Origin: a virus
IMG/VR virus record: IMGVR_UViG_3300023313_000003
Location: 1 to 64,000 of that record
Length of the DNA: 64,000 nucleotides
Reading direction: 5' to 3' (one strand)
This document shows positions 1-52,708 of this stretch, piece after piece. A model generated the notes under the pieces. The model was given only the letters and a program-made list of their open reading frames with translations. It was not told the origin of the DNA and made no database searches. The translations under genes were made by a program, and so were the position numbers. The number at the start of each line of letters is the position of its first letter. Position 1 is the stretch's first letter.

Positions 1-113
1 CTCAGCATATTTAAGTTCATAATTATTAAGAACATAACTTATTACACGTTTTATTTCTTTAGGTTGTTTATTCCATTTTCCGAATTGGAATAAGAAGCTT
101 CTCATTTTCATAA

Positions 114-314
114 CTATTCCTTGTCAAAGAACCACTGGATCTCTATTCCAGCACGAACACCTCTTTCCTTAAGATGTTCATTTATTTTATCTAAGTCTTT
201 CTTAAGCTTGGGTGTGAAGATGTTATCAATAATATGTTTAGCATATTCAACATCATCTTCACTAATTTCAATTTTAGGCTGTAGCTTCTTCTTTTTGAGC
301 ATCTTGTTTAGCAT
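114..314 (-). CDS. hypothetical protein (66 aa)
   Basis: ORF tightly packed in the minus-strand operon; no motif recognised. Confidence 0.6.
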   Translation of the reverse strand: MLNKMLKKKKLQPKIEISEDDVEYAKHIIDNIFTPKLKKDLDKINEHLKERGVRAGIEIQWFFDKE

Positions 315-18657: not shown

Positions 18658-18934
18658 TTATTATTAATTGTAATTCTTCTGATAATATATCTTTGTCTTC
18701 TTTAGGAATCGATTCATAAGTATCAGAATCAACTTGAACAAACTCTTCTACTTCTTCAGGCTTATAAACTTCTAATACAACTTTCGTTTTCAATCTATTA
18801 ACAACAAGTCCTTCTGAAGAAACAATTCCAACAACTTCTTCAGGATTAAGAGAAGCTTCTTCTATCGCTTGATCTTCTGATATTGCATATTTAAAATATG
18901 GTTCATTTTTATATAAAATTAAGTGAGTAAACAT
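18638..18934 (-). CDS. hypothetical acidic protein (possible fibre assembly factor)
   Basis: Coupled (TAATG) to the upstream tail-collar gene. Confidence 0.6.
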   Translation of the reverse strand: MFTHLILYKNEPYFKYAISEDQAIEEASLNPEEVVGIVSSEGLVVNRLKTKVVLEVYKPEEVEEFVQVDSDTYESIPKEDKDILSEELQLIINGEENE

Positions 18935-19791
18935 TATACAACCTTCATATAAGCTAATAAATAAACAAATTTTGGAGAAAGAATTTCAGTAGTTCCTCCT
19001 TCCTTGCCACCAGTTAGTGACCTTGCTCCTATTATATTATGAGTTTCACTACCATTACCAGTTAATTCTGTAGAAACTAAGGAAGTAGCTTGACTATTTC
19101 CGTCAACATAACCTTTAACTTGAGAGGCTGTGGTTATGCCTGATATGACCGATACATTTATTACACTTCCAGAAACACTTACTTGGCCAGGCCCGCCTAA
19201 AACATCAAAGTAAAAATTAAGCCTAATATCGTTTCCTACGCTTCCTTCTGCTTTTGCTGTATATCTTACATAATCTATTACTTTAGTTGCTCTCGTAGCA
19301 TTTACAGGAGCATCAGTAGCTAAATTTCCATGAGTATGTAGAATAGCACTTCTGATATTTGAACTTGCTGGATCTTTATTTCTGTTATCAATTGCTTGAC
19401 CTCCACCTCCACTAGCACTAGTTGAATGAGTATGGTCTAAGTTATGAGTATTAGTTCCACCTGAGTTGTTATTTATTATATCATTTGCCCCTCTAGGATA
19501 TTTTTCATTAAAATTAGGAGTGAATCGATTAAATATCCCAATAGTTCTAAGAGGAGAGTTTGGGTTTGTTATTTCACTACCATCACATAATTGCCAATAA
19601 TTAATATTTGGCAAAGTTACTCCTATTTGTGTTGCGTTAATATATATTATAGATCCAATAGGCATTAGATTTAATAGAAAGTTATTATTCATAGCCATTT
19701 TCTTCAATAATTCTTCATGGCCAGGAACATGTAAGTCAACTTCGTTTGAATGATACTCTGTAAAAATAGAAGGAACTCTTATATTTCCCAT
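18934..19791 (-). CDS. tail-collar/short-fibre protein with an inserted sheath-like module
   Basis: MPIGSII..WQLCDG..TPN..YPRG collar pattern, HxH motifs, insert at about 19006-19290. Confidence 0.75.
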   Translation of the reverse strand: MGNIRVPSIFTEYHSNEVDLHVPGHEELLKKMAMNNNFLLNLMPIGSIIYINATQIGVTLPNINYWQLCDGSEITNPNSPLRTIGIFNRFTPNFNEKYPRGANDIINNNSGGTNTHNLDHTHSTSASGGGGQAIDNRNKDPASSNIRSAILHTHGNLATDAPVNATRATKVIDYVRYTAKAEGSVGNDIRLNFYFDVLGGPGQVSVSGSVINVSVISGITTASQVKGYVDGNSQATSLVSTELTGNGSETHNIIGARSLTGGKEGGTTEILSPKFVYLLAYMKVV

Positions 19792-29098: not shown

Positions 29099-31285
29099 TT
29101 AATAGTTATATTTTATGAAAAGGTTTAAGTTTATATTTTTCATTCTTGTTTCATTTCCACCAGTAGAACTACTAGCAACACCTCCACTAACAGAAGTAAC
29201 AGGATAAGACCAAGTAGAACCCCACCATCCTTGCCCTATGTTTGGCCTATTATAAGTATGATTGTGACTTTTAAATTCGTCATTCTGGAATGAACCAATT
29301 AAAGATTGATCTGCTTCGTGTAAAACTCTTGAGTTGAGATCAGGATCAAGTCCTCTCCCATTATCAGTTACTCTAATTGATGTGCCTCTAGCATCAGGAA
29401 GAAATCCCCAACCTTTTATCTGTCTTAATTTATCTGAAGCAACTAAAGGTTTAGTTTCAAGTAAAGCCCAACGATCACCATTAGGATCATTCATTTCAAC
29501 CCTAAATTCAGCTTCAGTTAATACCGACCATGAACAATGTCCAACAGGAAAAACATCAATAGCTCCGTCAGTAGCTTGCAATGGAATTGTATTCCAAACT
29601 TGAGCAACTGAATCATATATTTTTATATGAGCCTTCCCATCTACCATAGCAAAAGCATAGTTTACATTGCCAGTAGTTAATGTTGGAGGATCTGGAAGAT
29701 CAGCTTCACTTGGAAAAACTTTTGAAGAGAAAACAGTTCCGTTTAAATTCTCTTCAACTTCAAAAATAGGTTCAGCTAAGTCATTCTTAACTGCCCATGT
29801 ATTTCCTACACCATCTACGATATATAAAACATTGTTATTATCAACAAATAATTCCCAAGCTAATCCACTTGTACTAGATAGGAATAAGTTATCAACAACA
29901 ACTCCTGCTGATGGATTATCATTAACAGATATTTGACCGAGATCATTTATTTCTAATGACACTATTGATAGATCATCTCTCTTTAATCTTATGGGATCAA
30001 CAACACCTGTAACAACCTCATTAGCTTGCAACTCTCCAGTGTTAGATATATTTAAAGACCATTTTTGTAATGATGGACTTTCTAGTATTATATTAGTTAA
30101 TTTTGGCCTTAATACTACACAAACATTTCCAAAAGAATCTATAGAACTAGATCCTTCAAAAAATACTATATAAACTTTTTTAGATATTCCAGTTAAGTCT
30201 CCATCAATAATAAATTTATTACTAGAAACTAAATGCCAAGAATTTGTAATTATTGTAGAACTTTTTTTACATATAAAAACACCATCTACAAACACCATAG
30301 CTACATCTGTGTTTAAAACACCAGCAGATAAAGTAAATTCAGTATCAACTCCAACTAAAACACCTTCAGTTAAAGAGTCAAAAGACTGTTCATGCTTAAT
30401 TGATAAGCCAGCTAATATAGAAGGAACAACTGAAGGTAATTCAACACCTTCATACACTTCGATCTCTAATTGAGAAGCTTGTCCTGAATAATCTGAATCT
30501 AATTCAAAATTAAAGCTATCTATCTTTATAAAATAAGGAGCAGGAGTTGTTAGTGCATCTATAAATTCAGGAAGTTTTTTACCATCTAAATAAATATTTG
30601 CTTTATCACTATCTAATATTTCAAAGTCATGCTGTATTTGAGTTTTATTATTAGAATTAATAAATGGGACTTGTACGTTGAACTCATTTTTAGATCCATC
30701 AGTTAAAGCAAAACCTCTTGACTTAACAGCTAATCCACCGCCTCCGCTTCCACCGCCACCTGAAATTCCTGACCAGATTGCAGCTCCTAATGTGTTATCT
30801 TCACATACATATAGAATATGAGTAATTTTGTCATACCATAAACTTCCTTCTACATAATTTTGAGTAATATCGTTATTTGCATCAGGAGATATGATTGCAT
30901 TTTTATTATCTCTTAATGACCAATACCTAGAGGCAGTTTCCGCTATATCGTCTGCTGATAGAGAAATATCTCCTTGCTGACCATTAACACTTGTCACGAA
31001 ACTTTTCCATACAGCTAACCCATTAGAATTATCCATACAGAAGTAGCTATCTCCAGTAGTTATATTTGACCACCTTGAACCAATCTCATAATTTTTAGAT
31101 AAATCATCAGTAGGAGTTGGATTTACTGTTGCATTAAAATTGTTTTTCCTTAAAGTATTTTCTAAAATATCATCACTCTTAGGAGTATACGCTTTCTCTG
31201 TACTAGGAAGATACGTTTTATCAGCACCAGCATTAGTTAACTCTGTTAAAGTTTTAATGTCTGCATTTTGAATTTTACCACTCAT
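29099..31285 (-). CDS. tail fibre protein with C-terminal collar domain
   Basis: Two N.A...P...D....Y..GS.W repeats, VTSVNGQQG motif, Gly linker, LPDARG..GRGLD..GSFQ.DE.KSHNH..ETR..N. Confidence 0.8.
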   Translation of the reverse strand: MSGKIQNADIKTLTELTNAGADKTYLPSTEKAYTPKSDDILENTLRKNNFNATVNPTPTDDLSKNYEIGSRWSNITTGDSYFCMDNSNGLAVWKSFVTSVNGQQGDISLSADDIAETASRYWSLRDNKNAIISPDANNDITQNYVEGSLWYDKITHILYVCEDNTLGAAIWSGISGGGGSGGGGLAVKSRGFALTDGSKNEFNVQVPFINSNNKTQIQHDFEILDSDKANIYLDGKKLPEFIDALTTPAPYFIKIDSFNFELDSDYSGQASQLEIEVYEGVELPSVVPSILAGLSIKHEQSFDSLTEGVLVGVDTEFTLSAGVLNTDVAMVFVDGVFICKKSSTIITNSWHLVSSNKFIIDGDLTGISKKVYIVFFEGSSSIDSFGNVCVVLRPKLTNIILESPSLQKWSLNISNTGELQANEVVTGVVDPIRLKRDDLSIVSLEINDLGQISVNDNPSAGVVVDNLFLSSTSGLAWELFVDNNNVLYIVDGVGNTWAVKNDLAEPIFEVEENLNGTVFSSKVFPSEADLPDPPTLTTGNVNYAFAMVDGKAHIKIYDSVAQVWNTIPLQATDGAIDVFPVGHCSWSVLTEAEFRVEMNDPNGDRWALLETKPLVASDKLRQIKGWGFLPDARGTSIRVTDNGRGLDPDLNSRVLHEADQSLIGSFQNDEFKSHNHTYNRPNIGQGWWGSTWSYPVTSVSGGVASSSTGGNETRMKNINLNLFIKYNY

Positions 31286-31294
31286 ATTTATTTC

Positions 31295-33427
31295 CTATAT
31301 AGTCTCGTATTTTACTTTTAATACTTGTCCTAAAACTGGAGGACTATTTAATGTTATTGTGTTTGTTGCTAAAGTGAAAGAATATTCTGTATCGTTCAAT
31401 CCATTCAAGAAAAGCATCAGAGATCCATCGATAGGAGGATTGCTGATAATATAATCTGTATTAATTCCATCAACTACTCCAATAGGAGTTTCTGTAATTG
31501 GAGTAGAATATCCTTCTCCTATTCTAATTATTTTACCTGATCTTTGTAATGTATTATCCCACCAGATTAATGAGTCACCAACTCTTGAAGCAATTCTAAA
31601 ATATTCAGGATCATTTGGTACATCAGTTCCAACTATAGGTGTAATATTTAATGTCACATTGAAATTTACCTTAGCATATAAATGTTCGCCATCAGCTAAA
31701 GTAAAAGGACTAAAGGAAGTTTGTATTGTATTAAAAACAGAGCTTTTACCGAAAGAAATAATTAGATCATCTAATATTTCTAATGTTCCTGCTGGATTAG
31801 ACCAGATTATCTTCCCATTATTGTTCGTAAATACAAAAGCATTTTTACTATTGATCAAATCATTTATAGTCTTCTGAGTATTTAGAATAACTGGGCCACT
31901 AAGATTTGAAAGAGTATCATCATCTAATGTTACTTTATTCTTAAAAGTAGATTCTCCAGAAACAAACAGTATTCCTTGAGTTATTAAGTCTTTTACTAGT
32001 AAATTAGCATTTCCTTCATAGAAAGCTGAAGGATCAGTTAGTTCTTTTGTATTAATAACATAAGAAGCATTAGGCCTTCCTCCTTTTAAATATGTTTGGA
32101 TAAAAGGAGAAGCTTGAAGTTCACTTCCAGAAGCATTAAGGCCAATTGTTATTAAGTCGTTAGATAATAGATTACTTTCTAATGCTGTTTTGATTTGTTG
32201 TGCATCTGATAATCCATCATTGAATGTAACTACAATATGATCACCGATTACTTCAACTAATTCTGCGCCAGGTAAACCTATATCATCAGCTCCATTTATT
32301 AAATTAATAGGAGCGACTATTGTTGTTTGAGGATTACTGTTACCACCTGTAATAGTTGGGATAACTAATAGACTTGCATTAACATTAGCTGTAATTGCAT
32401 CATTTATTTGTTGAGCAGTTGAAACTCCGTCTTCTGCTTTAATTTTTATAGAACTACCTACTACTGTAATGATTTCATTACCAGCATCACCAATAGCATC
32501 TACACCACCAGTTAAAAAAGTTTGTGGGTGTATCGTTTGTAATTCATTCCCAACACCTAAAGCAATAGTTTGAACTAATGCATCAGCTAATGGAGCATTT
32601 ACAATTGCGAATCTAATACTATCAGGAGTAGATACCCCATCTTCAATTTGTATTGAAAGGTCATTGCCAACTAAAGTGACGACTTCAGAACCATAAGTTC
32701 CTCCTCCAGTATAGGTTATATTAATTAAATCACCTACAACTCCACCTAACCTTGATACATACTCTATATCTTGGATAAATTCATTAGAAGTTATAGAAGG
32801 AGTAAAATCTTCATACTCTATCGAGATATTGTTACCAATTAATCCAGAATTAACAGAAGTATATAAAATGTCTTGTATAGTTAAAGAAGCTGTATTTAAA
32901 ACACTTCCCTTTTTATATTCTATAGATATTTTGTTACCTAATTGTTCTATTTTCTTAGAAGTAAAATTAAGATCACCAATAGATAAAGAGGCATCTATAG
33001 AATTTAATGTGAATCTAAGGTTATGATCACCAGAATTGCTACCAGTAGTGCCAGCTCCAAAATTCTTCTGAGGAAGTTCATCGTAATTATCCAAATTTTC
33101 TCTTGTAAGGTCTGAACCTTGAGCAACAGAGAACTCAAAAGTATCTCCTATTTCAAATAAGGTAGGCCCTTGGTTGATAGTAGCAAATAACTTTAAGTCT
33201 TGGTCATTAAAAGCGACACCAACAACTGCAACTCCAACAGATCCATCTAAGTCTCCAATTATTTTAAAAACAGTAAATGGAGCAATCGCAGTACAAATCG
33301 CACTATAATTTTGATTTATAGTAAAATGAGTTAGCCTGTCAATAGTTAGTGTTCCATTTCCAATTGAAGGGCCAGTTAATACTGGAGATGAAGAAACGTA
33401 GGGATTTTTGAAAATATCTTGTGACAT
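31295..33427 (-). CDS. virion structural protein with three nested sheath-like modules
   Basis: Half-repeat pattern A-A-A-B-B-B; C-terminal ETP.G..DG.N small beta domain. Confidence 0.72.
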   Translation of the reverse strand: MSQDIFKNPYVSSSPVLTGPSIGNGTLTIDRLTHFTINQNYSAICTAIAPFTVFKIIGDLDGSVGVAVVGVAFNDQDLKLFATINQGPTLFEIGDTFEFSVAQGSDLTRENLDNYDELPQKNFGAGTTGSNSGDHNLRFTLNSIDASLSIGDLNFTSKKIEQLGNKISIEYKKGSVLNTASLTIQDILYTSVNSGLIGNNISIEYEDFTPSITSNEFIQDIEYVSRLGGVVGDLINITYTGGGTYGSEVVTLVGNDLSIQIEDGVSTPDSIRFAIVNAPLADALVQTIALGVGNELQTIHPQTFLTGGVDAIGDAGNEIITVVGSSIKIKAEDGVSTAQQINDAITANVNASLLVIPTITGGNSNPQTTIVAPINLINGADDIGLPGAELVEVIGDHIVVTFNDGLSDAQQIKTALESNLLSNDLITIGLNASGSELQASPFIQTYLKGGRPNASYVINTKELTDPSAFYEGNANLLVKDLITQGILFVSGESTFKNKVTLDDDTLSNLSGPVILNTQKTINDLINSKNAFVFTNNNGKIIWSNPAGTLEILDDLIISFGKSSVFNTIQTSFSPFTLADGEHLYAKVNFNVTLNITPIVGTDVPNDPEYFRIASRVGDSLIWWDNTLQRSGKIIRIGEGYSTPITETPIGVVDGINTDYIISNPPIDGSLMLFLNGLNDTEYSFTLATNTITLNSPPVLGQVLKVKYETI

Positions 33428-33546: not shown

Positions 33547-34356
33547 TTAGAATACTTCATCAAACTTAAAAGGCATCGTCATATATCTATTAACAGTATA
33601 AGATTCAGCAGGAATAGTAGACATTTGCCCCCACCCTGTAAAAAGCTCAGGGTCATCTCTATCTACAATTGTTAAAAATGGAACGCTAATACCCACATAG
33701 TCGAATAAACTTCTTAAATTAACAAAATTTGTATTGTTTCCGATTTTAGTATCAAGTTTTGCAAACTTAACACTTAAAGTTCTAGCTTTAACTCTCTGAT
33801 TTGATTGTCTAAAGAAGCCTTCTGTACTTATAACTTCAGCATAATCTTTAGTTGCAATAGAAATTGAGTCTGTAATATCTTCATTATTACTCATAGTAGT
33901 TGCTCTCCCTCCTACTATTCTACCAATCTCAATAAATCCACAAGGATTAGTTGGATCGAGTATTCTAACTCTATAATACTCAAATTGATCTCCTAATTCT
34001 GAAAGCCACACCATATTTTCTCTCATATAAGGGATAGTAACTGTAACTGGAGGTGCAAGCCAATTATCTGAAATATTAGCTTGGAGTTGAACTACAACAT
34101 CTGGAGTAAAATTATGCCCAATGATAGCAAAAGTGTCGATATTTGACACTTTCTCAGCCTTTATCACTATTTCTTGCCAGTTTAAAACATCTGTACTTCT
34201 CCATCTATGCCTACTTGATTCAGTATTTAAGTTTAATTTATCAAAATCACCAGACGCTTGAGAAGTTACTGACAAAATATTTTGGCCTGGATTATAAATA
34301 TCTCTGTTCCCAAAATCAAATCTATGTAAAAAGCTTATTCCTGTTCCTGAACTCAT
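33547..34356 (-). CDS. distal tail (Dit-like) protein
   Basis: Directly after the tape measure gene; GHNF..YYRV.I.D..IEIGR, ending F.F.EV. Confidence 0.6.
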   Translation of the reverse strand: MSSGTGISFLHRFDFGNRDIYNPGQNILSVTSQASGDFDKLNLNTESSRHRWRSTDVLNWQEIVIKAEKVSNIDTFAIIGHNFTPDVVVQLQANISDNWLAPPVTVTIPYMRENMVWLSELGDQFEYYRVRILDPTNPCGFIEIGRIVGGRATTMSNNEDITDSISIATKDYAEVISTEGFFRQSNQRVKARTLSVKFAKLDTKIGNNTNFVNLRSLFDYVGISVPFLTIVDRDDPELFTGWGQMSTIPAESYTVNRYMTMPFKFDEVF

Positions 34357-37300
34357 GATGCAATAACTCCTTTATCACTTATAATTGGTTCTCCACGTTC
34401 TGAAGCTTCTCTTATTCCTTCAATTACAGCTTGCTTAATTCCTTCAATATTTGAATCCCGATCAGCATTAATAGTAAAATTATAAGTATTTCCACCAGAA
34501 CCTTCTTTTCTGTCCTTAAGATAACCTGTCAAATCCTTATTCGCTTCTGGCTGAAGAACCCTTTCTCCACCTTTTAGCAAGAAAGATTTGTCACTCATAG
34601 ATTGAGGGATTGAGTCCATACCACCATGAGCTTGACCTCCACCGAATTTTTGAGCTTTAATCTGTGCAACATTAGCAATACCAGCAGCAACAGTTACACC
34701 AGCAAGTAAAGGCCCAAGAAGAGGCCCTGCTCCAACTGGAGGTGGAGCTAAAGCTGCTGTCGCTCCAGCAAAAGTATTCATTATACTAGAAGTAATGGCC
34801 GCGGCTTTACCTACCTCGAACATATCTTTGTCTTTACTTCCTCTTAATTTGGAAGTCATGTCTAAGATCTTACCTGTATTCTTATATTCGCTAGTTTGTT
34901 GAACTGCCATTATAGCACCAAGAGCTTGACCATTTTTAATTTGACTCGCTCTCATTCTCGCTCTAAATTGTTCAGCTCTATTCCCTGCATCTTGAGCAAT
35001 CTTAGCTTTATCTTGGTAAAATCTAAGTTCAATCTCTTTTAACTTGTTCTTATGTTGGATTTCTCTTTGCTCTCTCGCTAATCTGAATTGATCTTCAGTT
35101 ATTACCTTGTTCTCTTGTTCAAATTGAAGCCTTTCTAATTCTAACTGATGTTGCTCTTCTTGTTTTGCCATTTGAGCAGCGAGTCCATCATCAGTTAATC
35201 CTAATAATTCAGCTCTTTGAGTTTGAAGTTCCAACTCTTTCATTGTTTTTTCTTGAATAGCTGCTAATTTTGTATCATGCATTTTTTTCTGCATTTCAAT
35301 TTCAGCATTAGCTCTTGCTTGTCTTCTAGTTGAGAGTTCTAACTCTAATTGATCTGAAATTTCATTAAAAGATTTTTGCATTTCTATCTCAGAAATTTTT
35401 CCTTGCATTTTTAATGCTTTAATCTTATTCATTCTAATTTCAGTATTAATAATTTCAGCTTGGTCTTCAGCTCCAGCACCAGCAGAAGTTCCACCAAGCA
35501 ATCCTGCTTTAATATTAGCAAGTGCAGCTTGTTTTTGTTGTTCTGAAGATATAGAAAGAGCCATCTTTGCTTGAAGGTTTTGTTCAAACATTTGAAGTTC
35601 TGTTTCATTAGCAGCAAGAAGAGCTGACTCATTATTTGAAAGACCATACTTAGCCTCAAGCTTTCTTTTAGTAATAAGTTCTTGAGTTAATAACTCAATT
35701 TTCATATCTTTTATATTTACTGCCTGATCTCGCTTCATTTGAGCGATTTCCATTTCTGTAGTAAAAACTTTTGACATTTCTTGATCAAGACCTATTTGAA
35801 CTTGAGCTATCTGAGAATTTCTAGTTTCTTGCTGTATTTTTATTTTATTAGCTTCTAGTGCTTCCATGGCAGCGAGTATTTTTTCACTATTTTTGTCAAC
35901 AGCACCCCAATCTGAACCACTTTTAATTAATGCTTGATTTAATTCTTGTCCTTTTGTTATTATTTTTTGAAGTTGTGCTGAAAACTTAGCTGAATCTGCC
36001 TTAATTTTTTGTAGATTTAAAGATGGAGTCAAATCTGAAACAAACTCAAAAGCAGCTTCTCCTTCTTTAACTATTTTGTTGAAAGAAGAGGATAATTTTT
36101 CTAAATTTTGTTTTAAATTTTTTACTGAATGACCAACTTTATCAGAAGCCCCTGCTGTGGATATAAAACCATTAACAACATCACCAGCGACTTCTCCAGA
36201 TAAAGTTCCCATTGTTTCTGATAATTGCATTATAGAAGAAGTTAATCCTTGCATTTTTTTATCAGACATTGCTAAAGAACTAAGTCCAAGATAATTAAAA
36301 ATCTGAGATAAACCCCCAACTGCCAAAGTTAATGTCATTATTCCATTAACTAATGCTAATATCCCTACTGCAACTACTTTTATTGCAGTTCCTAACATTC
36401 CACTTAATATCTCTGCAAGAGAAGTTGAAGATTTATTAGCTTTCTCTGCTGAATCTGCAACAGAGGCAAAAGCTTTAGATAGAGTATCAACAACTTTAGA
36501 AAATATCTTAAATCTTTCTTCAAGCATTGTTACTGCTTTATATAAGGCCGCGGCAATAGCTATAATTATTGTAATTTTAATCAATAATACTTTATTAGCA
36601 ACAACCCATTTCCAAGTCGCAATTGTGGCTGCTTTTATAGAGGAAATTAACGATACAGCGATACTTCTAGCTGTTAATTTACTTGCTGCTTCCATTCCTA
36701 ATATACTTTTAATAGCACCAGCTACTTTTACTTTAAGAACACTAAGTCCTGTTCCTGCGACTTCCTTTAAAGATCCAAATTTCCCTGCAACTCCAGTTAC
36801 ACCCATAGCCATTTCAGATAAACTTTTATTAATAAAAGGTAACTGAGAAGAAAATACTTTCATTCCAGCAGAAGAAGCTAACCCTGCGTTTAAAGCACCC
36901 AAACTTGAGGTAACTAATCCTATCAATAATGAGTTTTGAAGAAGAACCCCTCCAACTTGCATTAATCTCCCCGATAAAGCTTGGATAAAACCAATAGCAG
37001 GAAGAATTGGTTTAACTAAATTAGTAAATCCTGATGTTAATTTTGCTAACCCCATGACTACTTGACCATTTATAATTTGACCGCCTTTACCTAATTCTTG
37101 CATTAATTCTTTTGTTGCATTTTTTTGAAGTTTTAATGCTTTTGAATAAGTGTCAGCATTACTTGAAGCAAACCCAGCGGCTAATCCTGCTTGCTCCATT
37201 AAAACATTGTATCTTGCTTGCCCTTTTTCTACATCTCCAAGTTTATTAAAATTATCTTTTAACTCTTGATTAAGATTTGATTGTTTTATAGCAGTTGAAT

Positions 37301-39203
37301 TTAAGTGTAGTCCATAAACGGCTAATCCTGAGCTATTTCCATTAACAGCATTTATTAATGCTGTTAGAGTATTTATAGCTGGCTTATGCGCTCTCTCAGA
37401 TAAATCAATAGATCTACTTATAAGCGTTTCCATTTCTTTTTGGTTCAATCCAAAAGCATGAGTCGCACCAACTGTCTCTGCAACTAATTTCCTAAGAGAA
37501 GCTGTTGTTTGCCCTGTTGATGAATTGGTCTTTTTAATAAATCCATTCCAAGTTTCTGTTGCTTTGGAGGCCTCTTCTGCTGAATGAGAATACCCTCTTA
37601 ATGTTTGAAGAAAGGCAAAGGTAGATTGCTCTGCTTTGGCAAAATATTCTATTTGTTTAGTAGAGGCTTTAGTAAAAGAATTACCCATTTTAGTAATGAA
37701 ACCACCTAATGCAACAGCAGCTTGCTGAACTATATAAGCAAACCCACCAAATGCAGCTCCTAAAGCTATAAGAGTAACCCCTGTAAGTCTCTTCATTAAG
37801 GTGTCAGCTTGCAATAGAGAGTACCCCATTATACCAAAAGCAGAACCAACAGCTCCAGCTCTAGCAACAGTTCCTAAGAGTCCTTTATGAAAAAATTCAG
37901 TGTGCTTACCTATTGTTAGCATTGTTTTACCAAAATTTAGTCCAACAGATCCAGCTTGTGCTGTTGATTTTGCAAATCTTACTAAAGAAGATCCTGAACT
38001 TACTATGATTTTACCAAATGATTTAACTCCTAATGATAAATTTTTAAATCCACTTTTAGATAATAATTTTATATTTGTTAATGTTGACTGAGATGACTTT
38101 GATATAATTTTAAATGCATTAGCCATCTTAGAACCTAAAGCTTTAGATAAAAGAATAACTTGTTTTTTAGTTTGAGAAACTTTTAATTTGAATAAATTTA
38201 ATTTAGAAGTTTTCATAGCTCCAACACTATCCCCAGCACTGTTAAAAGCTTTCTCCATACTTTTTGCATTATCAATTATTGCATTAGAAACTTTTAAACT
38301 AGCATTGGTCGCAGTTTCAGTAAAATTTGATAAGGTGTGATAGGTAGTCATAAGAGAAGACTGAAGTATAGTTAAACTAGTATGAACTCCTTTAAGTCCT
38401 CCTGCTGCTAATTGTAACATTGCCTTATTTAGCTTTAAGGCCACTGTATCAAAAACAGTTACTACTGCTTTATTAAGTCCTCCAAAATCACCTGACATTT
38501 TTAGAATACTAGGTGATACACTAGAAGACATGGCTTTAATCGTTTGAGTTGTCGATTGTATTCCTGCTTTTAATGTAGTTAACCCTTTCTTAGATATATT
38601 TTTAAACCCTTCTTTAACTTCAGATAACTTTAAATTACTCATTGAAGTTTTTAATGTTCTAAAAGATTGACTTATTTTATTACTAGCAGGGCCAAAGGCA
38701 GCCATATTTGAAACAAGCTCATCAGCACGAAAACTAACTTTAAGCATATATTCTTCAAGGGATATAAGACCTAATTTAATAGGCACAAATGTCTGCTTTA
38801 TAACCGCTAGTCCAATAAAAGCACCACCAACGGCTAAGGTGGTATCTGCGATTCTTTGCAGTCCATTGGAGATTGAAGAAAAGGCTGAAGGATCATTCAG
38901 CATATCTAATGTCGTCACTAATTGTTCATTTTGATCTTTTAATGCTTCAGTTAAACTATTAGTTTTCTCCATATCTTTGCTAAGAACTTTTAAAGTTTTC
39001 GCTTTAGCTCTCATAGATAGATTTGAGGAAAGTATGCTTTTGACTAAGTATTCCTGACTGACAGTATTTTCTTGAGCTGATTGATTCGCAGTTTGAAGTG
39101 ACTTGGTATACTCTGAATTAATTATCTTTGCAGCCCTTCTAATAATTGGGGATAAATTATCAACTGCTGTTAAATTTACTTTTAAGTTTTTTTCTATTGC
39201 CAT
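34353..39203 (-). CDS. tape measure protein
   Basis: 1616 aa, Ala/Gly/Ser/Lys-rich helical, central hydrophobic region, C-terminal AHGG..GERVL; follows the chaperone pair. Confidence 0.92.
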   Translation of the reverse strand: MAIEKNLKVNLTAVDNLSPIIRRAAKIINSEYTKSLQTANQSAQENTVSQEYLVKSILSSNLSMRAKAKTLKVLSKDMEKTNSLTEALKDQNEQLVTTLDMLNDPSAFSSISNGLQRIADTTLAVGGAFIGLAVIKQTFVPIKLGLISLEEYMLKVSFRADELVSNMAAFGPASNKISQSFRTLKTSMSNLKLSEVKEGFKNISKKGLTTLKAGIQSTTQTIKAMSSSVSPSILKMSGDFGGLNKAVVTVFDTVALKLNKAMLQLAAGGLKGVHTSLTILQSSLMTTYHTLSNFTETATNASLKVSNAIIDNAKSMEKAFNSAGDSVGAMKTSKLNLFKLKVSQTKKQVILLSKALGSKMANAFKIISKSSQSTLTNIKLLSKSGFKNLSLGVKSFGKIIVSSGSSLVRFAKSTAQAGSVGLNFGKTMLTIGKHTEFFHKGLLGTVARAGAVGSAFGIMGYSLLQADTLMKRLTGVTLIALGAAFGGFAYIVQQAAVALGGFITKMGNSFTKASTKQIEYFAKAEQSTFAFLQTLRGYSHSAEEASKATETWNGFIKKTNSSTGQTTASLRKLVAETVGATHAFGLNQKEMETLISRSIDLSERAHKPAINTLTALINAVNGNSSGLAVYGLHLNSTAIKQSNLNQELKDNFNKLGDVEKGQARYNVLMEQAGLAAGFASSNADTYSKALKLQKNATKELMQELGKGGQIINGQVVMGLAKLTSGFTNLVKPILPAIGFIQALSGRLMQVGGVLLQNSLLIGLVTSSLGALNAGLASSAGMKVFSSQLPFINKSLSEMAMGVTGVAGKFGSLKEVAGTGLSVLKVKVAGAIKSILGMEAASKLTARSIAVSLISSIKAATIATWKWVVANKVLLIKITIIIAIAAALYKAVTMLEERFKIFSKVVDTLSKAFASVADSAEKANKSSTSLAEILSGMLGTAIKVVAVGILALVNGIMTLTLAVGGLSQIFNYLGLSSLAMSDKKMQGLTSSIMQLSETMGTLSGEVAGDVVNGFISTAGASDKVGHSVKNLKQNLEKLSSSFNKIVKEGEAAFEFVSDLTPSLNLQKIKADSAKFSAQLQKIITKGQELNQALIKSGSDWGAVDKNSEKILAAMEALEANKIKIQQETRNSQIAQVQIGLDQEMSKVFTTEMEIAQMKRDQAVNIKDMKIELLTQELITKRKLEAKYGLSNNESALLAANETELQMFEQNLQAKMALSISSEQQKQAALANIKAGLLGGTSAGAGAEDQAEIINTEIRMNKIKALKMQGKISEIEMQKSFNEISDQLELELSTRRQARANAEIEMQKKMHDTKLAAIQEKTMKELELQTQRAELLGLTDDGLAAQMAKQEEQHQLELERLQFEQENKVITEDQFRLAREQREIQHKNKLKEIELRFYQDKAKIAQDAGNRAEQFRARMRASQIKNGQALGAIMAVQQTSEYKNTGKILDMTSKLRGSKDKDMFEVGKAAAITSSIMNTFAGATAALAPPPVGAGPLLGPLLAGVTVAAGIANVAQIKAQKFGGGQAHGGMDSIPQSMSDKSFLLKGGERVLQPEANKDLTGYLKDRKEGSGGNTYNFTINADRDSNIEGIKQAVIEGIREASERGEPIISDKGVIAS

Positions 39204-40163: not shown

Positions 40164-41735
40164 TTACTTAATCGTTAACGTCATTTCATCATCTAAACTA
40201 TCAGTTGAAGTAGCTAGGCCGACTCCTTCAAGTGACAATGTAACATAACCATCAGCAGGGTTTTCAATAGGTGGTATGCTAAATTCTACTTTTGGCAATC
40301 TAAACTCAAAAGTTCTACCAGCAGAAGAACTAAAACTTGGAGCAGGAATATCATTAGGTTCTAATGTTATTGTAATATCTTCTGCAACAAATTTCTTATT
40401 TCTCATATAAAATGAGAAGTTATCTTTATTTAAAAGAACATCTAATTTGCAAGTAACTGAACGTCTTTTGTCAGGAATATATCCACAAATTTTGTTAGTT
40501 CCATAAAGAAAGTCTTTTTTAGTATAGTTATTAGCCAAAGCAATTTCAGCACTAATTAATTCACACTCTCCAATGTTAAATCCAGCAACAGTAAAAGTTC
40601 CTTTAAGTCCTAAAAGCGCACTTTCTGATGTTATTGGAGCATAAACTTCAGGAGCATGCCCCATTAAGTAAGAACCAACACTTGAAGCAGCCAAAGCAGC
40701 TCCACCAAGAGTAACTATATCTTCATTAACACCTTCATACACAGCAGAAATAGATCTAGCTGCTTCTATAATAGTGTTGCCATCAATATCAATAATATCA
40801 ACTAAAGAATTAACTTCGTATCGATTACCTTCTTTAAGGCCTAATTTTATATCGTTAGTTCCAAGACCACCTACTAAGAAAGAAGGGTTAGCCATTAAAA
40901 GTTGAGTATTTGCTCCAACACCTGAAACTGTAGCAGTAGCTATTGCAGTAAAAGCAGCAGATCCAGCTAATGCAGCTTGAATTTGAGTTGCACTTGAAAC
41001 TCCAGAATCCATTGAAACTTCAACATTATTACCTACAACAGTAACAACTTCTGCTCCAGCAACTCCACCAGTTACATATTTAACATTAATTAAATTTCCA
41101 TTTATTCCAGAACCAATTAAAGCATCAAAAGTAATATCTTGCTCTACAAGAGCAGCAAGTTGTTCAACACCAGTAATTGCTTGAGAAAGATTTCCTTCAC
41201 CAGCTACTAAAGAATCTTGAGCAAAACCATCTGCTTTAAATGTTGCCTTACCATCGCCAGGCAAAGAAAAAGTTACTGTATCGATAACACAACCAGTAGT
41301 TAATCTTGCATAGTGAGTTGCTTCTTCTATAATTCTAAAAGAATTAGAATTTAATCGTGAAAGAACATATTTAATCTCAGCAGGATTAGTTACATCAAAG
41401 TCTCCAAAAGCTGACACTAAGAAAGCATGAACTGGAGGTAATGTAGGATTTCCTAAACTATCAGGAGTGCCAGGTACAATATATGATTCAAAAGAAAATT
41501 CAACATTAATTTTACCACTTAATCTAGTAACTAAAGATCGTCCAGAACGTGCGCCTGAATCTTCTCTAGGAATATCAAATTTAATATCAGCAGCGATATG
41601 TTCAATAGCTCCTGAAGATTGTGGAATTAATCCACCTGTAGCTGTATCTCCATATCCACCTGTTTCTTGATCGATCCATATCTTCTGATCGACTCCTAAA
41701 ACTTCGTATGATCTTGATTTTAAGTCTCTACTCAT
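40164..41735 (-). CDS. major tail (tube) protein with inserted sheath-like module
   Basis: Position after the tail terminator and before the chaperones; tube-type N- and C-terminal regions; own terminator. Confidence 0.8.
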   Translation of the reverse strand: MSRDLKSRSYEVLGVDQKIWIDQETGGYGDTATGGLIPQSSGAIEHIAADIKFDIPREDSGARSGRSLVTRLSGKINVEFSFESYIVPGTPDSLGNPTLPPVHAFLVSAFGDFDVTNPAEIKYVLSRLNSNSFRIIEEATHYARLTTGCVIDTVTFSLPGDGKATFKADGFAQDSLVAGEGNLSQAITGVEQLAALVEQDITFDALIGSGINGNLINVKYVTGGVAGAEVVTVVGNNVEVSMDSGVSSATQIQAALAGSAAFTAIATATVSGVGANTQLLMANPSFLVGGLGTNDIKLGLKEGNRYEVNSLVDIIDIDGNTIIEAARSISAVYEGVNEDIVTLGGAALAASSVGSYLMGHAPEVYAPITSESALLGLKGTFTVAGFNIGECELISAEIALANNYTKKDFLYGTNKICGYIPDKRRSVTCKLDVLLNKDNFSFYMRNKKFVAEDITITLEPNDIPAPSFSSSAGRTFEFRLPKVEFSIPPIENPADGYVTLSLEGVGLATSTDSLDDEMTLTIK

Positions 41736-41753: not shown

Positions 41754-42077
41754 TTATTTTTTAATCTTTACAGATTTAATTTCTTTTTTTTCTTCTTTTT
41801 TAGGTGAAGTTTTTACCTGTTTTTTTTGTTCTTTTAATCCTTCTACAATGAAAAGCCATTTTCTTACTCGTAGTCTCCTCATTTTACTAATATCAGATAT
41901 ACAAATAATATATTTTTTACTTCTATAAGAAAATTTAATCACCTCTTCATCAAAAGAAATATCAGACATTTGGACACCATCATACCGAACACCGCTAATT
42001 TGAAAATTTAATGAATTTCTTTTACTTAAATGTAGCCTTTTGATTTTGGCTAAGACTTGTCTTTTTCTATCGTTCAT
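41754..42077 (-). CDS. hypothetical basic protein
   Basis: ATG ORF with AAGGA RBS and an upstream TTGTATATA motif. Confidence 0.65.
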   Translation of the reverse strand: MNDRKRQVLAKIKRLHLSKRNSLNFQISGVRYDGVQMSDISFDEEVIKFSYRSKKYIICISDISKMRRLRVRKWLFIVEGLKEQKKQVKTSPKKEEKKEIKSVKIKK

Positions 42078-47375: not shown

Positions 47376-48782
47376 CTAAGCAAGAATGTTGTAAATTATT
47401 GCAACAGAACTTTCTTGAGCATAATTTGAAGAATCTGCCTTCAAAACACCTTGGAAAGCTTTTCTACAAAAAGAAACTAAATCAAGAACATCATATTGAG
47501 TTCTATTTTTTTCAACTCTAACTTGAACAGCTCTTCTAAGACCTAAGAACCATCTTTTTCTGTTAACCATTATAACAGAAAGAAAGTTATTAGCTCCAGC
47601 AGTTACGTTTTTACCAGTTGAAGTTGTATCAGCTCTTAAATATTCAGATACGATTACTGGCGCACCTTCATATTTAGCAAGCTCACCTGTAATTACAGTT
47701 CCTTTTGAACCATACTCATTAAGAGTACGAACATCAGCAAGTTGTAACATTTGATTATAACCTTTTGATTCTACAATGATAGCAAGTTGAGATGGATCAA
47801 CACCAAATTTACCCATTTTTGAACGACAAGCACTCATTTCAGTTTCAGTTAGTTTTGCTCCACCAGCATTAACACTACCAGCAGCTCCAGCTCCTAAAGC
47901 TCTTTTTCTTAAACCATCAAAGAAATACTCAGGAGAGTCAGTGATAGCAGTAATTAAAGTGCCAGGTGTAACATCTGGAAGTTGTGATTCATCATGCATA
48001 ACACCTAATGTATCACCTTCAAGAATAGCAATTTCGATTGCTTTTTCTTGACCTTCGATTAATTCTTGACGAATAACTTTAACTACATCTGGAGCTGAAT
48101 CTTCATTCAATTCTTCAGGTAGTTCATATTGGTTAGTCATTTTAACAGCATCAAACTGAATAGTTTTATCAGTTTTGAAAACTTGTGCTGGAGCTAATGC
48201 ACTAATAGCACCAACTTTTCTAGCAATTGCACCACCAGTTAAAACTGGAAATCTATAAGGATTAGAAGGCATTTTAATTTCAGCAAATAATCCAGATACT
48301 TTTCTATCTAAATTAAATTCATCAATATAAGAATCAGAAACCATTGTAGGAATCCAATCAAAACCATCGTTACCTGTATTAATGCCAAAAGCTTTCATGT
48401 GAAAGTCTAATTCGTCATTAAAGAATGAAAGACTTTTAACATCTTCAGCAGAGATAGTTGAAGATTTACCTTCAGTTTCTCTAAACTTTAGAATTTGTGC
48501 TGTAACAACAGCAACATCAACAGCTTCTTTTAAACTCTTGACTGCTTCAATTTCTTGTTTACCAAGGTAAGAATATTTCTTAGCAGAAGTATCAACTTTC
48601 ATAAGATCGTTCATACTTTTAACACCAAAATTTCTTAAGTTCTTAACTAGAACTTCAGACATTTCACCTTTAGTTTGTCTCTTAGGAGTCGCACTTCTTT
48701 GAGTTGCGGCAACCTTTTTCTTGTTTGCTTTTTTCAAAGCTGCTTTAGCATTTTTTATTGCTAATTTTAATTCTTCGTTCAT
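47376..48782 (-). CDS. major capsid protein (HK97 fold)
   Basis: G..WIPT, EELNEDS, E.AILEGD, G.P(V)IVSEY; N-terminal delta-like region; strong codon bias; followed by a terminator. Confidence 0.92.
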   Translation of the reverse strand: MNEELKLAIKNAKAALKKANKKKVAATQRSATPKRQTKGEMSEVLVKNLRNFGVKSMNDLMKVDTSAKKYSYLGKQEIEAVKSLKEAVDVAVVTAQILKFRETEGKSSTISAEDVKSLSFFNDELDFHMKAFGINTGNDGFDWIPTMVSDSYIDEFNLDRKVSGLFAEIKMPSNPYRFPVLTGGAIARKVGAISALAPAQVFKTDKTIQFDAVKMTNQYELPEELNEDSAPDVVKVIRQELIEGQEKAIEIAILEGDTLGVMHDESQLPDVTPGTLITAITDSPEYFFDGLRKRALGAGAAGSVNAGGAKLTETEMSACRSKMGKFGVDPSQLAIIVESKGYNQMLQLADVRTLNEYGSKGTVITGELAKYEGAPVIVSEYLRADTTSTGKNVTAGANNFLSVIMVNRKRWFLGLRRAVQVRVEKNRTQYDVLDLVSFCRKAFQGVLKADSSNYAQESSVAIIYNILA

Positions 48783-50092: not shown

Positions 50093-52708
50093 TTAGAAAT
50101 TAAACATAAAATCAAAAGTATTTTGAGTCCGATCAATATCTAGTATATTGTCTATATAATTAGAGTCGCCTTTCATGTGGTAAATAACTGAACATCTGCA
50201 ATTTATAACTTCTTCTGCTGGGCCTTTTGCTTCTCTAGGGAAGTCTAATCCATTACTAAAAGACTTATCAGAGGCAACTTCTTCACCATCTAAGATAACA
50301 TGATTTGCTTTATCTCCATTTAAAGGACTTCTAACTTGTCCATCTTGTGCGGTTATCCAAGTTTTTAATAAGTTGTCTTTAAAATTAGGAATTTCATTAG
50401 ACAACTTTTCTACTTTTATACTTTGACCTTGAGAAACTGCTGTTAAAACTTCAGTTCTTGCTATAGTATTCGCTCTACCTTGTTTAATTTCATCAAAAGT
50501 TTCCTGTATCTTAAGAGATAATTCTTGAGAGGAGTCTTGAGCTTTAAAAGAATCGATAATAACCTTTTTTATTTGTTCTCTTGTTACTTCAGTTACTCCT
50601 GTAATTTTTTCTGCTGCCCTTTTTTTTAACCAATTAGTAGCTAACTCATTAGGATATGAAGTTGCTTGTTTAGGTAAAGTTCTGGAGAATCCTAACTCCA
50701 TAGCTGCTAAATCTGAATCTGAAACTTTTACACTTTCTATCTCTACAAATTGAAGAATCCAATCAAAAAGAGGAAGCCCTTCAATATCGCTATCATCTTT
50801 AGTTAAACTTTTAAAATCAATTTTATTTATATCTTCTAAAACTAAAACCTTCATTCTATCAAACATTTCTTGAACGTCTTTTAACTTAGCTTCAATTAGA
50901 GGTTTAACTCCATCTCCAGTTAGTGCTTTACAATATTCTTGTAATTTTAATTCTTTCTCATTTAAGTTTTTTTTTTCTTCATCATCTTGTGAAGCTTTAG
51001 GATTTTGTGATTCATCTTGAACTTCACTATTAGGCTTAACTGCTTCTGAGTTTTCTCCCCCTGGCGCAAGACCTTCAGCTACAACTTGCTCTATGGCCGC
51101 GGTTAATGCTTGGCCTAATGGAACTCCTGAAGCAATTAAGATTCCTACTAGTTGAGAAAGTCTTTCCGCATAAGTAGCCCGAGTTGGTTCAATGTCTGAT
51201 AATGTAGCTAAATCTGGTTGAGGAGCTTCAATCTTAGTTTCAATATCGTTTGGAGCAGAAGCTTCAGTATTAGAATCTGAAGAAGAACTGCCATACATAT
51301 CTTGAGTGTTTAAAGTAGAAACAATTAAAGGAACTTGATTACCCATTTCTACTGCTGGTTTTTTCCAGATCTCTTGTCTGATTTCATTTATTGACCATCC
51401 TGCTTTACTCATTAAGATTGCAGTTTCAGCCTTGTCTTTTATACTTTCTTGAAGAGCTTCAATCATAGAAGTATCAAAAGAAAATTTAAGATTTCTTTCA
51501 ACATTTAGAATATCTAAATCTAAGTTGAAAGCATCTTCAATAAACCTTTTCATAGGTATTACTGTATCTGTCCAAAAGATCTTTTCTTGAACTAAAGCGT
51601 TCGCATAAGTCGCTCCATCTAAGAGGCCAACTTTTACTGGTGGAACTCCATAAGCTGACAAAATTGGTTCTTTATTAAATTTAGAAAATTCAACCAAAGA
51701 AGTCTCGCCAGGGTTCTGTTCAATAGTTTGGTAATCCATACCTTCAGGAAGGATTAATGTCTTATGATGATTATTTTTTCCAGTGTAGTCATTTTCAAAC
51801 GAACGAGTTAATCTTGTTAGCTGATCTTTAGTGAGTTTTTTAGTAGTTTTTATTACTCCACCAAGTCTTGCACCATTCTTATAAAATCTAATCATGTGTT
51901 CTGAAGTGAATTTATCAATTAATACATGTTTAAGCACAGGAACAAGAGGAGCAAGCCCATTAAAAGCATCAGTAGGATTAGGAAGTCTAATATGAATTAC
52001 TTCATCTAAAGTAAATTGATACATTCCATCTTCAGTTTGCATTGAGTACCCAACTAATTCATAAGTGTTACCATCAAATACAGGTTCAACTAGTGAGGAG
52101 TTAAGTCTATACATAGAATGTACGTTTGATTTTCTATGAGATCTTATTTGTTGTTCTAACGCAGAGACTGGCCTTGAATCTCCTTCAATTTCACCTTCTT
52201 TAGTTTTAAGAATAAAAGCTTGACCTGTAGCTAGAAGGTCAATTAAGACCAACATATAAAATTCAACAGGCAATTGAGATTGATTTGGGTAAGTTAGTAA
52301 ATCATATTCTGGTTCTGCTGATGCATCTATCCAAGTTTCTTTGTAAGTAGTTGTTTCATTTCCTTTATCATCTGTAAGTATTTGTTTTTGTATCTTTCTT
52401 TTCTCTAATTTGATGGGAAGTGTTGAAATAGTCTTTGCAATTGTGTGAATTACTATAAAAACCCACGTTTCAGAGGCATAAAGACGCTGTAAAGTCGCTG
52501 AATTGATCGTTTCACCAACAACCCCCATTATATCAGAAGAAGAGTTAGAACTGCCATTACTGTAGTTTTTAGTGTCTAAAGCCCTTAATTCTGCCTCTAT
52601 ATCGCTTTCATCTAGCTTATTCTCTAGTTCAAGTATCTTATTTTCCAAAATATCAATCTTATTCTCTTGTGGATTTTTTAAGATTGTTTTTTTTATTTGT
52701 TTAATCAT
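50093..52708 (-). CDS. portal protein fused to a MuF/SPP1 gp7-like minor head domain
   Basis: EVIHIR..G.AP..F.NGA..G, GVPP, INEIR; C-terminal RA.TIARTE..KTW...D..VR..H..INCRC. Confidence 0.92.
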   Translation of the reverse strand: MIKQIKKTILKNPQENKIDILENKILELENKLDESDIEAELRALDTKNYSNGSSNSSSDIMGVVGETINSATLQRLYASETWVFIVIHTIAKTISTLPIKLEKRKIQKQILTDDKGNETTTYKETWIDASAEPEYDLLTYPNQSQLPVEFYMLVLIDLLATGQAFILKTKEGEIEGDSRPVSALEQQIRSHRKSNVHSMYRLNSSLVEPVFDGNTYELVGYSMQTEDGMYQFTLDEVIHIRLPNPTDAFNGLAPLVPVLKHVLIDKFTSEHMIRFYKNGARLGGVIKTTKKLTKDQLTRLTRSFENDYTGKNNHHKTLILPEGMDYQTIEQNPGETSLVEFSKFNKEPILSAYGVPPVKVGLLDGATYANALVQEKIFWTDTVIPMKRFIEDAFNLDLDILNVERNLKFSFDTSMIEALQESIKDKAETAILMSKAGWSINEIRQEIWKKPAVEMGNQVPLIVSTLNTQDMYGSSSSDSNTEASAPNDIETKIEAPQPDLATLSDIEPTRATYAERLSQLVGILIASGVPLGQALTAAIEQVVAEGLAPGGENSEAVKPNSEVQDESQNPKASQDDEEKKNLNEKELKLQEYCKALTGDGVKPLIEAKLKDVQEMFDRMKVLVLEDINKIDFKSLTKDDSDIEGLPLFDWILQFVEIESVKVSDSDLAAMELGFSRTLPKQATSYPNELATNWLKKRAAEKITGVTEVTREQIKKVIIDSFKAQDSSQELSLKIQETFDEIKQGRANTIARTEVLTAVSQGQSIKVEKLSNEIPNFKDNLLKTWITAQDGQVRSPLNGDKANHVILDGEEVASDKSFSNGLDFPREAKGPAEEVINCRCSVIYHMKGDSNYIDNILDIDRTQNTFDFMFNF

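Follow-up and report, generated by a model that had tools for sequence, protein, structure and literature searches.

The Si3 insertion of cyanobacterial RNA polymerase holds eight SBHM copies, four of them built from distant segments (PMC10895346), and in a survey of domain insertions it figures as a recursive architecture of six levels (PMC13114784). Tail sheath proteins add outer domains built from an outgoing and a returning segment of the chain, as in the layout of T4 gp18 (PMC9230969). Here we analyse a stretch of viral DNA of 64,000 nucleotides (IMG/VR record IMGVR_UViG_3300023313_000003, positions 1 to 64,000; hereafter the window) and one of its gene products, the 710-residue protein P0001. 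Very probably, amino acids (aa) 146-454 of P0001 are three copies of one domain of ~100 residues, nested inside each other in the form A1[A2[A3-B]B]B, where A and B denote the domain's N-terminal half and its C-terminal half. The grounds for this reading are the order of the units, the contiguous A+B domains found elsewhere, the pairing predicted for two of its three domains, and the matched counts of halves in relatives.

Si3, which belongs to the β′ subunit (RpoC2), resembles P0001 in several respects. In both, copies of one small β-rich domain occur, some of which are split around further copies, and the array, by prediction in P0001, is lodged in a host protein as an elongated side arm; for Si3, as many as six levels are described. 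The two differ in fold, and the host of Si3 is the catalytic trigger loop of a cellular enzyme. The layout of Si3 is irregular, with continuous and split copies mixed, whereas that of P0001 is a clean, palindrome-like A^nB^n. Unlike Si3, the P0001 module varies in depth among close relatives and sits in virion surface proteins. The first-pass annotation of this DNA knew of no described example of such nesting. This was wrong, as the recursive SBHM/HABAS nesting of Si3 has been published (PMC10895346, PMC13114784). With Si3 the principle is already described, and what is new here is another fold, its occurrence in phage virion proteins, and the regular A^nB^n form.

Order and predicted pairing of the half-domains in P0001

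The stretch 32078-32995 of the window corresponds to aa 145-450 of P0001. The gene and its repeat units, assigned by hidden Markov models (HMMs) and by predicted structures, whose local confidence is given as the predicted local distance difference test (pLDDT), are as follows.

31295..33427, minus strand: P0001, 710 aa, from the open reading frame (ORF) list and its translation; carries the array under study
32891..32992, minus strand: A1, aa 146-179, N-half of the outer domain (HMM match; pLDDT 88-97)
32789..32890, minus strand: A2, aa 180-213, N-half of the middle domain (structural alignment to the sheath domain)
32693..32788, minus strand: A3, aa 214-245, N-half of the inner, contiguous domain (structural alignment)
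32483..32692, minus strand: first B, aa 246-315, inner-domain C-half; partner A3
32270..32482, minus strand: second B, aa 316-386, middle-domain C-half; partner A2
32066..32269, minus strand: third B, aa 387-454, outer-domain C-half; presumed partner A1

Three A units of ~34 aa (aa 146-245) are thus followed by three B units of ~70 aa (aa 246-454), with short linkers of about 4-8 residues between units. In local alignments scored against 500 shuffles, the A units resemble each other at Z = 4.2-10.3 and the B units at Z = 11.5-13.2, whereas A against B gives Z = -0.6 to 5.2, mostly near background. Because the A-A and B-B scores are high and the A-B scores mostly background, the array reads at the sequence level as two unit types in the order AAABBB rather than ABABAB. 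The nested copies are homologous to one another, as indicated by these scores and by the same HMMs matching all units. The order of three N-halves followed by three C-halves, proposed in the first-pass annotation, was recovered by both alignment and HMMs. At the centre of the array, the junction between A3 and the first B (TYTGGGTYGSEVV) resembles that of a contiguous domain (in the tail tube, KYVTGGVAGAEVV); the innermost A-B junction motif of P0001 is the native motif of contiguous copies.

We ran the A and B HMMs, built from the units, over the ORFs of the window, and two further proteins were found to carry the domain.

40164..41735, minus strand: tail tube, 523 aa (Pfam Phage_tube_2), with two small genes next in order
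40833..41168, minus strand: A+B domain of the tail tube, about aa 190-301 (HMM match and comparison with shorter tubes)
18997..19290, minus strand: A+B domain of a 285-aa protein, about aa 168-265 (HMM match)

In the tube, A at about aa 195-233 is directly followed by B at 227-291 (B E = 6e-11), and in the 285-aa protein (ORF 18934..19791) A lies at about 170-195 and B at 204-264 (E = 8e-6). Since both proteins carry one A immediately before one B, A+B is one unit of ~100 residues outside P0001, in agreement with the contiguous halves noticed earlier in other proteins of the window. The tube of related phages occurs in two forms, of ~520 aa with A+B or of 414-416 aa without it. By comparing the window and contigs L002, L004 and L007 with L001, L003, L005, L006 and L008-L010, we found that the forms differ solely at one region of ~90-110 aa (about aa 190-301 of the window protein), a length difference which the aligner sometimes divides into two adjacent gaps. 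As the tube is present with or without that one region among related contigs, A+B is an optional cassette of the tube.

Some relatives also have an extra protein of ~200 aa with one A+B, encoded immediately upstream of the tube gene. The window has a 107-aa ORF there (41754..42077), in which the A and B HMMs gave no match.

L001:1472-2074, L003:2002-2616, L006:1306-1935 and L008:489-1100: extra ~200-aa A+B protein

An AlphaFold2 model of full-length P0001, made with an alignment of 59 orthologues, has pLDDT > 90 over the repeats. For a second model, of aa 140-460, the mean pLDDT is 95.3 and the predicted template modelling score (pTM) is 0.76, which points to a fixed arrangement of the predicted domains. 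In both models, A forms three short strands with a helical turn, and B forms a hairpin, two helices and two strands. We compared the aa 140-460 model with 48,161 PDB representatives and with Foldseek's top 1000 chains, and in both sets only tail sheath proteins gave good scores. Sheath proteins occupy the first ten places (Z 6.1-9.3, root-mean-square deviation (rmsd) 2.7-3.2 Å, 85-98 residues aligned), and the next entry has Z 2.2. The phiCD508 sheath ranks highest (9g8s_e, Z 9.3, rmsd 2.8 Å, 98 aligned), with sub-model residues 36..243, equivalent to aa 175-382 of P0001, placed on chain residues 96..205; its other entry, 9gb1_1, has Z 8.5-8.6. The sheaths of Lin1278 (3lml, Z 8.0), phi812 (Z 7.4-7.7) and DSY3957 (3hxl, Z 7.3, rmsd 2.8 Å, 85 aligned in an 88-residue chain span, sub-model 38..242) and a haloarchaeal sheath (Z 6.1) follow.

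The pairing of the halves was deduced from the first and last aligned residues and from the aligned lengths. In the best alignments, a contiguous sheath stretch of 88-110 residues is matched by aa 175-213 together with aa 316-382, and the ~100 residues between them are skipped. Because one such alignment covers A2 and the second B, the two would form one domain in the model. For A3 and the first B, residues 211..310 of the full model align with 93..180 of 3hxl_A (Z 7.2, rmsd 3.0 Å, 84 aligned), and sub-model residues 73..169 align with 9ezm_A (Z 6.1, rmsd 3.1 Å, 87 aligned). In the predicted structure one copy therefore encloses another: aa 175-213 plus 316-382 and the enclosed aa 211-310 match the same sheath domain. 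The Russian-doll order A1-A2-A3-B-B-B put forward in the first-pass annotation is in this way supported by the AlphaFold2 models and structural alignments for two of the pairs it had expected, one of A2 and the second B, the other of A3 and the first B; the remaining one, A1 with the third B, is presumed by elimination, from the confidence of the model and from relatives. Its further suggestion of a telescoping stalk did not hold up, as there is no sign of sliding and the model is a fixed stack.

By structural alignment, the predicted A+B fold is that of the domain which contractile tail sheath proteins expose on their surface (phiCD508 9g8s/9gb1, Lin1278 3lml, DSY3957 3hxl, phi812; PF17481) and which lies at about residues 94-205 in the solved structures. 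An A unit of the orthologue P0033 matches positions 8-37 of PF17481 (Phage_sheath_domII) with 25.7 bits, below the 31.4-bit cutoff, which agrees with a sheath-type fold; sequence similarity of the P0001 type to this family stays below the Pfam threshold. Since the A+B profile gave chance-level matches only against PDB sequences, it is by fold comparison that the relation to sheaths is recognised. Foldseek with the full-length model found no match at E <= 0.001, two look-ups in the ESM Atlas returned only weak, unnamed viral clusters, and sheath core domains were found in P0001 by none of Pfam, PHROGs or the fold search. The match in the phi812 sheath has about 92 aligned residues spread over 221 of the chain, an indication that this sheath domain is interrupted as well.

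In the nested arrangement, the chain would run outward through the N-halves A1, A2 and A3 and turn at the tip, with A3 passing straight into its own C-half. It would then return through the three C-halves, closing the inner, then the middle and then the outer domain. Because the chain would go out through the A units and back through the B units, both ends of the array would lie at the base, with a three-domain arm projecting sideways, and the conserved N-terminal anchor and the variable, fibre-like C-terminal part would remain neighbours there. The two chain passes between neighbouring domains would stiffen the arm. Sheath proteins, like P0001, have outer domains of outgoing and returning segments. 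The nested domains of T4 gp18 differ from each other, whereas those of P0001 are copies of one domain. Flagellin and the hook-associated proteins (D0-D1-D2-D3) also resemble P0001 in their out-and-back chain, with the termini in the core and the outer domains projecting. Nested flagellin domains are of different kinds, and the A+B module matched no flagellin domains in the fold and sequence searches made.

Probable nesting in orthologues and in the wider A+B family

A search of 5.8 billion proteins yielded 80 relatives, and the orthologues are 655 to 1093 aa long. With refined HMMs, the orthologue set is of depth 3 in 61 of 69 proteins, of depth 2 in four and of depth 1 in three, and the detected A count equals the B count in 63 of the 69. 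Homologues with equal A and B counts at varying depth, as anticipated in the first-pass annotation, are thus present. The apparent count mismatch of P0062 is due to a weakly scoring A. In the depth-1 protein P0066, an A that groups with A1 is joined directly to a B that groups with the third-B units, as expected for the outer domain if the copies are nested. The gene order of tube, chaperones, tape measure, 269-aa gene and orthologue is kept in 10 IMG/VR viral contigs, one of which carries a depth-2 copy.

On a larger scale, a profile of the contiguous domain matched 1411 representative proteins at E <= 0.001, and we surveyed the architectures of the best 150 of these matches. Single copies, tandem ABAB arrays and many nests occur among them, the latter of the types AABB, AAABBB, depth 5 (P0174) and depth 8 (P0084, P0090). 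Other nests have the domain split after the first B hairpin, giving (A+hairpin)^n and then (rest of B)^n; this second type is found in P0149, P0174 and P0090 and reaches depth 8. P0077 and P0071 carry single insertions at the hairpin site and at a third site. In P0174, the outer three A units are close copies of one another, and so are the last three B units.

The split sites vary in other ways as well. In P0077, P0071, P0074, P0149, P0174 and P0090 the domain is split after the first B hairpin, or after its helix, and in P0034 (960 aa, NCBI source) the last B bears an insertion of ~125 aa before its final strand, which is another split site.

The giant proteins P0114 (3886 aa) and P0180 (5977 aa) contain at least 14 tandem copies of a divergent module, with the motif DLTFTA..G..FN.VTVEYV at a period of about 110 aa. 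We had considered them as A-only giants and rejected this, as they are tandem divergent A+B proteins whose B is missed by the HMM. So the family, judging from these sequences, also builds very long tandem arrays. P0108 and P0146 were rejected as AABBB proteins, their middle A being weak.

Alternative arrangements and the origin of the nest

Several observations weigh against a nest of three paired copies. The structure of the array is a predicted one, not a solved one; none of the rows of the sheath alignments covers A1 together with the third B; and an exchange of halves between the subunits of an oligomer would be compatible with a monomer model. Among the mismatches examined, P0034 (AABBB) is the sole orthologue with truly unequal counts. 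Unequal counts had been named in the first-pass annotation as grounds for refutation; they occur in this one orthologue, and in the others A and B are nearly always equal. Because P0034 truly has two A and three B units, an unpaired B would be tolerated in it or otherwise completed. Two score comparisons favour the nest, each with a limit. Of the 6 possible pairings, the nested one gives the best correlation between HMM scores of the halves (76 orthologues), most highly for A1 with the third B, in a test that is uncorrected for shared ancestry. In P0174, the similarities among A units and those among B units agree in mirrored order (r = 0.96, best of 120; r = -0.19 in parallel order), and the same mirror test is not significant in the depth-8 proteins P0084 and P0090 (r = 0.13 and 0.20), whose arrays appear too diverged to show the pattern.

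If the A units formed a separate β-meander and the B units autonomous tandem domains, no A-B pairing would exist. Both arrays are indeed tandem in sequence, and with its three B and two A units P0034 indicates that B may not strictly need A. Against such independent arrays, A and B are adjacent in single-copy settings and are gained or lost whole (520-aa vs 415-aa tubes), solved sheath domains span A and B in one alignment, the detected counts are equal in nearly the whole orthologue set, and all the apparent B-only proteins inspected proved to be N-terminal fragments or to have a divergent A. We regard this arrangement as very improbable. Another alternative keeps the pairing of halves and crosses the outer pairs, so that A1 would go with the second B and A2 with the third, or swaps halves between the chains of an oligomer. 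It draws on the missing alignment row for A1 with the third B and on the fibre-like look of the C-terminal part, which may oligomerise (our models are monomers). However, the crossed order is excluded in the model, where A2 and the second B align as one domain over 85-98 residues; the linkers between units are short, the aa 140-460 model is confident throughout, and the depth-1 orthologue joins an A1-like unit directly to a third-B-like unit. Crossed or swapped halves are thus unlikely in our judgement, and the nested pairing stays the preferred reading.

How the nest arose is a separate question. The first-pass annotation proposed repeated self-insertion into the same loop, which is unproven given the two separate gaps described below, the AABBB variant and the other split sites in the family. 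Stated more broadly, whole A+B domains or a ready AABB cassette would have been inserted repeatedly into the A-B loop. The native junction between A3 and the first B favours this route, as do the behaviour of A+B as a mobile cassette in tube proteins, the AABB modules found across many unrelated proteins, the nests at other sites in P0077 and P0071, which look like true insertions, and the outer three pairs of P0174, which look like recent co-duplicates. On the other hand, the depth-2 orthologues differ from P0001 by two separate gaps, one of an A and one of a B, instead of a single central gap of ~100 aa. In trees, noisy for units this short, they keep A1-like, A3-like and third-B-like units, so that it is the middle pair which differs. 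The first A of P0034 resembles an in-register fusion of A1 and A2, as a crossover would produce. We give this insertion origin somewhat less than an even chance.

Because the depth-2 gaps are two and separate, half-arrays that gain or lose units in step, or whole cassettes being exchanged, would fit at least as well as repeated loop insertion. Each change of depth would add or remove one A together with one B, and two unequal crossovers, one in each half-array, are slightly favoured over a single cassette insertion.

Flanking domains, phage setting and significance

The array is flanked by two parts of P0001 that differ in conservation.

32993..33427, minus strand: N-terminal domain and linker, aa 1-145; most conserved part, presumed anchor
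31298..32065, minus strand: C-terminal part, aa 455-710; linker motif, β-sandwich (about 530-625) and immunoglobulin (Ig)-like end (641-710)

The N-terminal domain has many invariant residues among 59 orthologues. Its fold is like that of the outer domains of FlgL/FlgK (5ziz_A, Z 8.8, rmsd 2.6 Å, 83 aligned; 4ut1_A, Z 8.7, rmsd 2.6 Å, 82 aligned). Across FlgL/FlgK the scores range over Z 8.2-8.8, and the periplasmic domains of Wzc are similar likewise; an Atlas model of this domain resembles decoration proteins of the lambda gpD type (TM 0.60). In the C-terminal part, the linker motif is conserved, and the length and content of the rest vary among orthologues. Residues 530..625 align with 2wzp_A of the lactococcal phage p2 baseplate entry (Z 5.8, rmsd 3.8 Å, 87 aligned), a chain which we take to be the receptor-binding protein, and with 1yu0_A, Mtd (Z 5.0, rmsd 4.0 Å, 89 aligned). 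The Ig-like end (aa 640..709) aligns with 8gtc_G (Z 7.0, rmsd 2.8 Å, 70 aligned). A likeness to tail fibre or receptor-binding proteins fits the position after the tape measure and the combination of a conserved N-terminus with a variable C-terminus; the C-terminal folds reach only Z 5-7, and no tail fibre or receptor-binding family match for P0001 was found in Pfam or PHROGs.

By gene content (Pfam, PHROGs and the ORF list), the window reads as a phage structural module. Its G+C content is ~30%, and nearly all genes are on the minus strand.

50093..52708: portal
47376..48782: major head protein
34353..39203: tape measure, 1616 aa, identity read from size and position
33547..34356: gene of the 269-aa protein, between the tape-measure gene and P0001

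Further large tail proteins come after P0001. The next gene (29099..31285, minus strand) encodes a 728-aa protein whose end domain matches PHROG tail fibre and tail collar fibre families and whose N-terminal region has a match in an unknown PHROG of giant proteins. The window showed no sheath gene. Because of this, the long tape-measure gene and the Phage_tube_2 tube, the phage is probably non-contractile. The A+B module thus differs from the sheath domain in its setting, its carriers being a tail-tip protein, the tube and a further tail protein.

P0001 has no match in Pfam or PHROGs, and aa 130-470 have none in Pfam even at E <= 1. A tblastn search with P0001 against 50,697 phage records gave zero matches. 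Because the portal protein of the window reaches only distant relatives there (~25-28% identity), the phage would have no close cultured relative in that collection.

Like A+B, the Ig-like decoration domains of phage tubes, capsids and fibres are small optional surface modules of orthologous virion proteins, and they differ from A+B in fold. Ig-like domains are normally added in tandem or at the termini, not nested in themselves. The role usually proposed for such modules is weak adhesion to the cell surface, which for the extra domains of sheaths is discussed in PMC9230969. By analogy with such optional phage surface domains, and because the same module optionally decorates the tube, the arm of P0001 would most likely serve surface display or weak adhesion, with depth setting its reach.

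In a limited literature search, we found no paper on self-nesting of the sheath-type module in tail-tip, tube or fibre proteins. Domain insertion as such is common, but the literature rarely reports clean recursive nesting of copies of one domain, Si3 being the one published case found. The present system is open to comparison, as it offers depths 1, 2 and 3 at one locus, depth 8 in unrelated proteins, two split sites, and tandem arrays as a natural control. It makes several questions addressable: how halves hundreds of residues apart fold together, how matched half-arrays evolve, and what a rigid arm gains over beads on a string. The module is currently missed by annotation pipelines, no Pfam family reaching threshold, and its practical value for phage biology is modest pending function.

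Tentatively, and with more doubt than confidence, we suggest that A+B is a widespread phage surface domain that lengthens arms by mirror-repeat growth of its half-arrays in step, depth acting as an evolvable length dial for a rigid arm. If this is true, depths from 1 to at least 8 would tune the length of a rigid, double-stranded arm projecting sideways from tubes, fibres and tip proteins, and the family would follow a distinct mode of repeat-protein evolution, unlike that of tandem repeats, in which AABBB and other one-sided variants are the intermediates.

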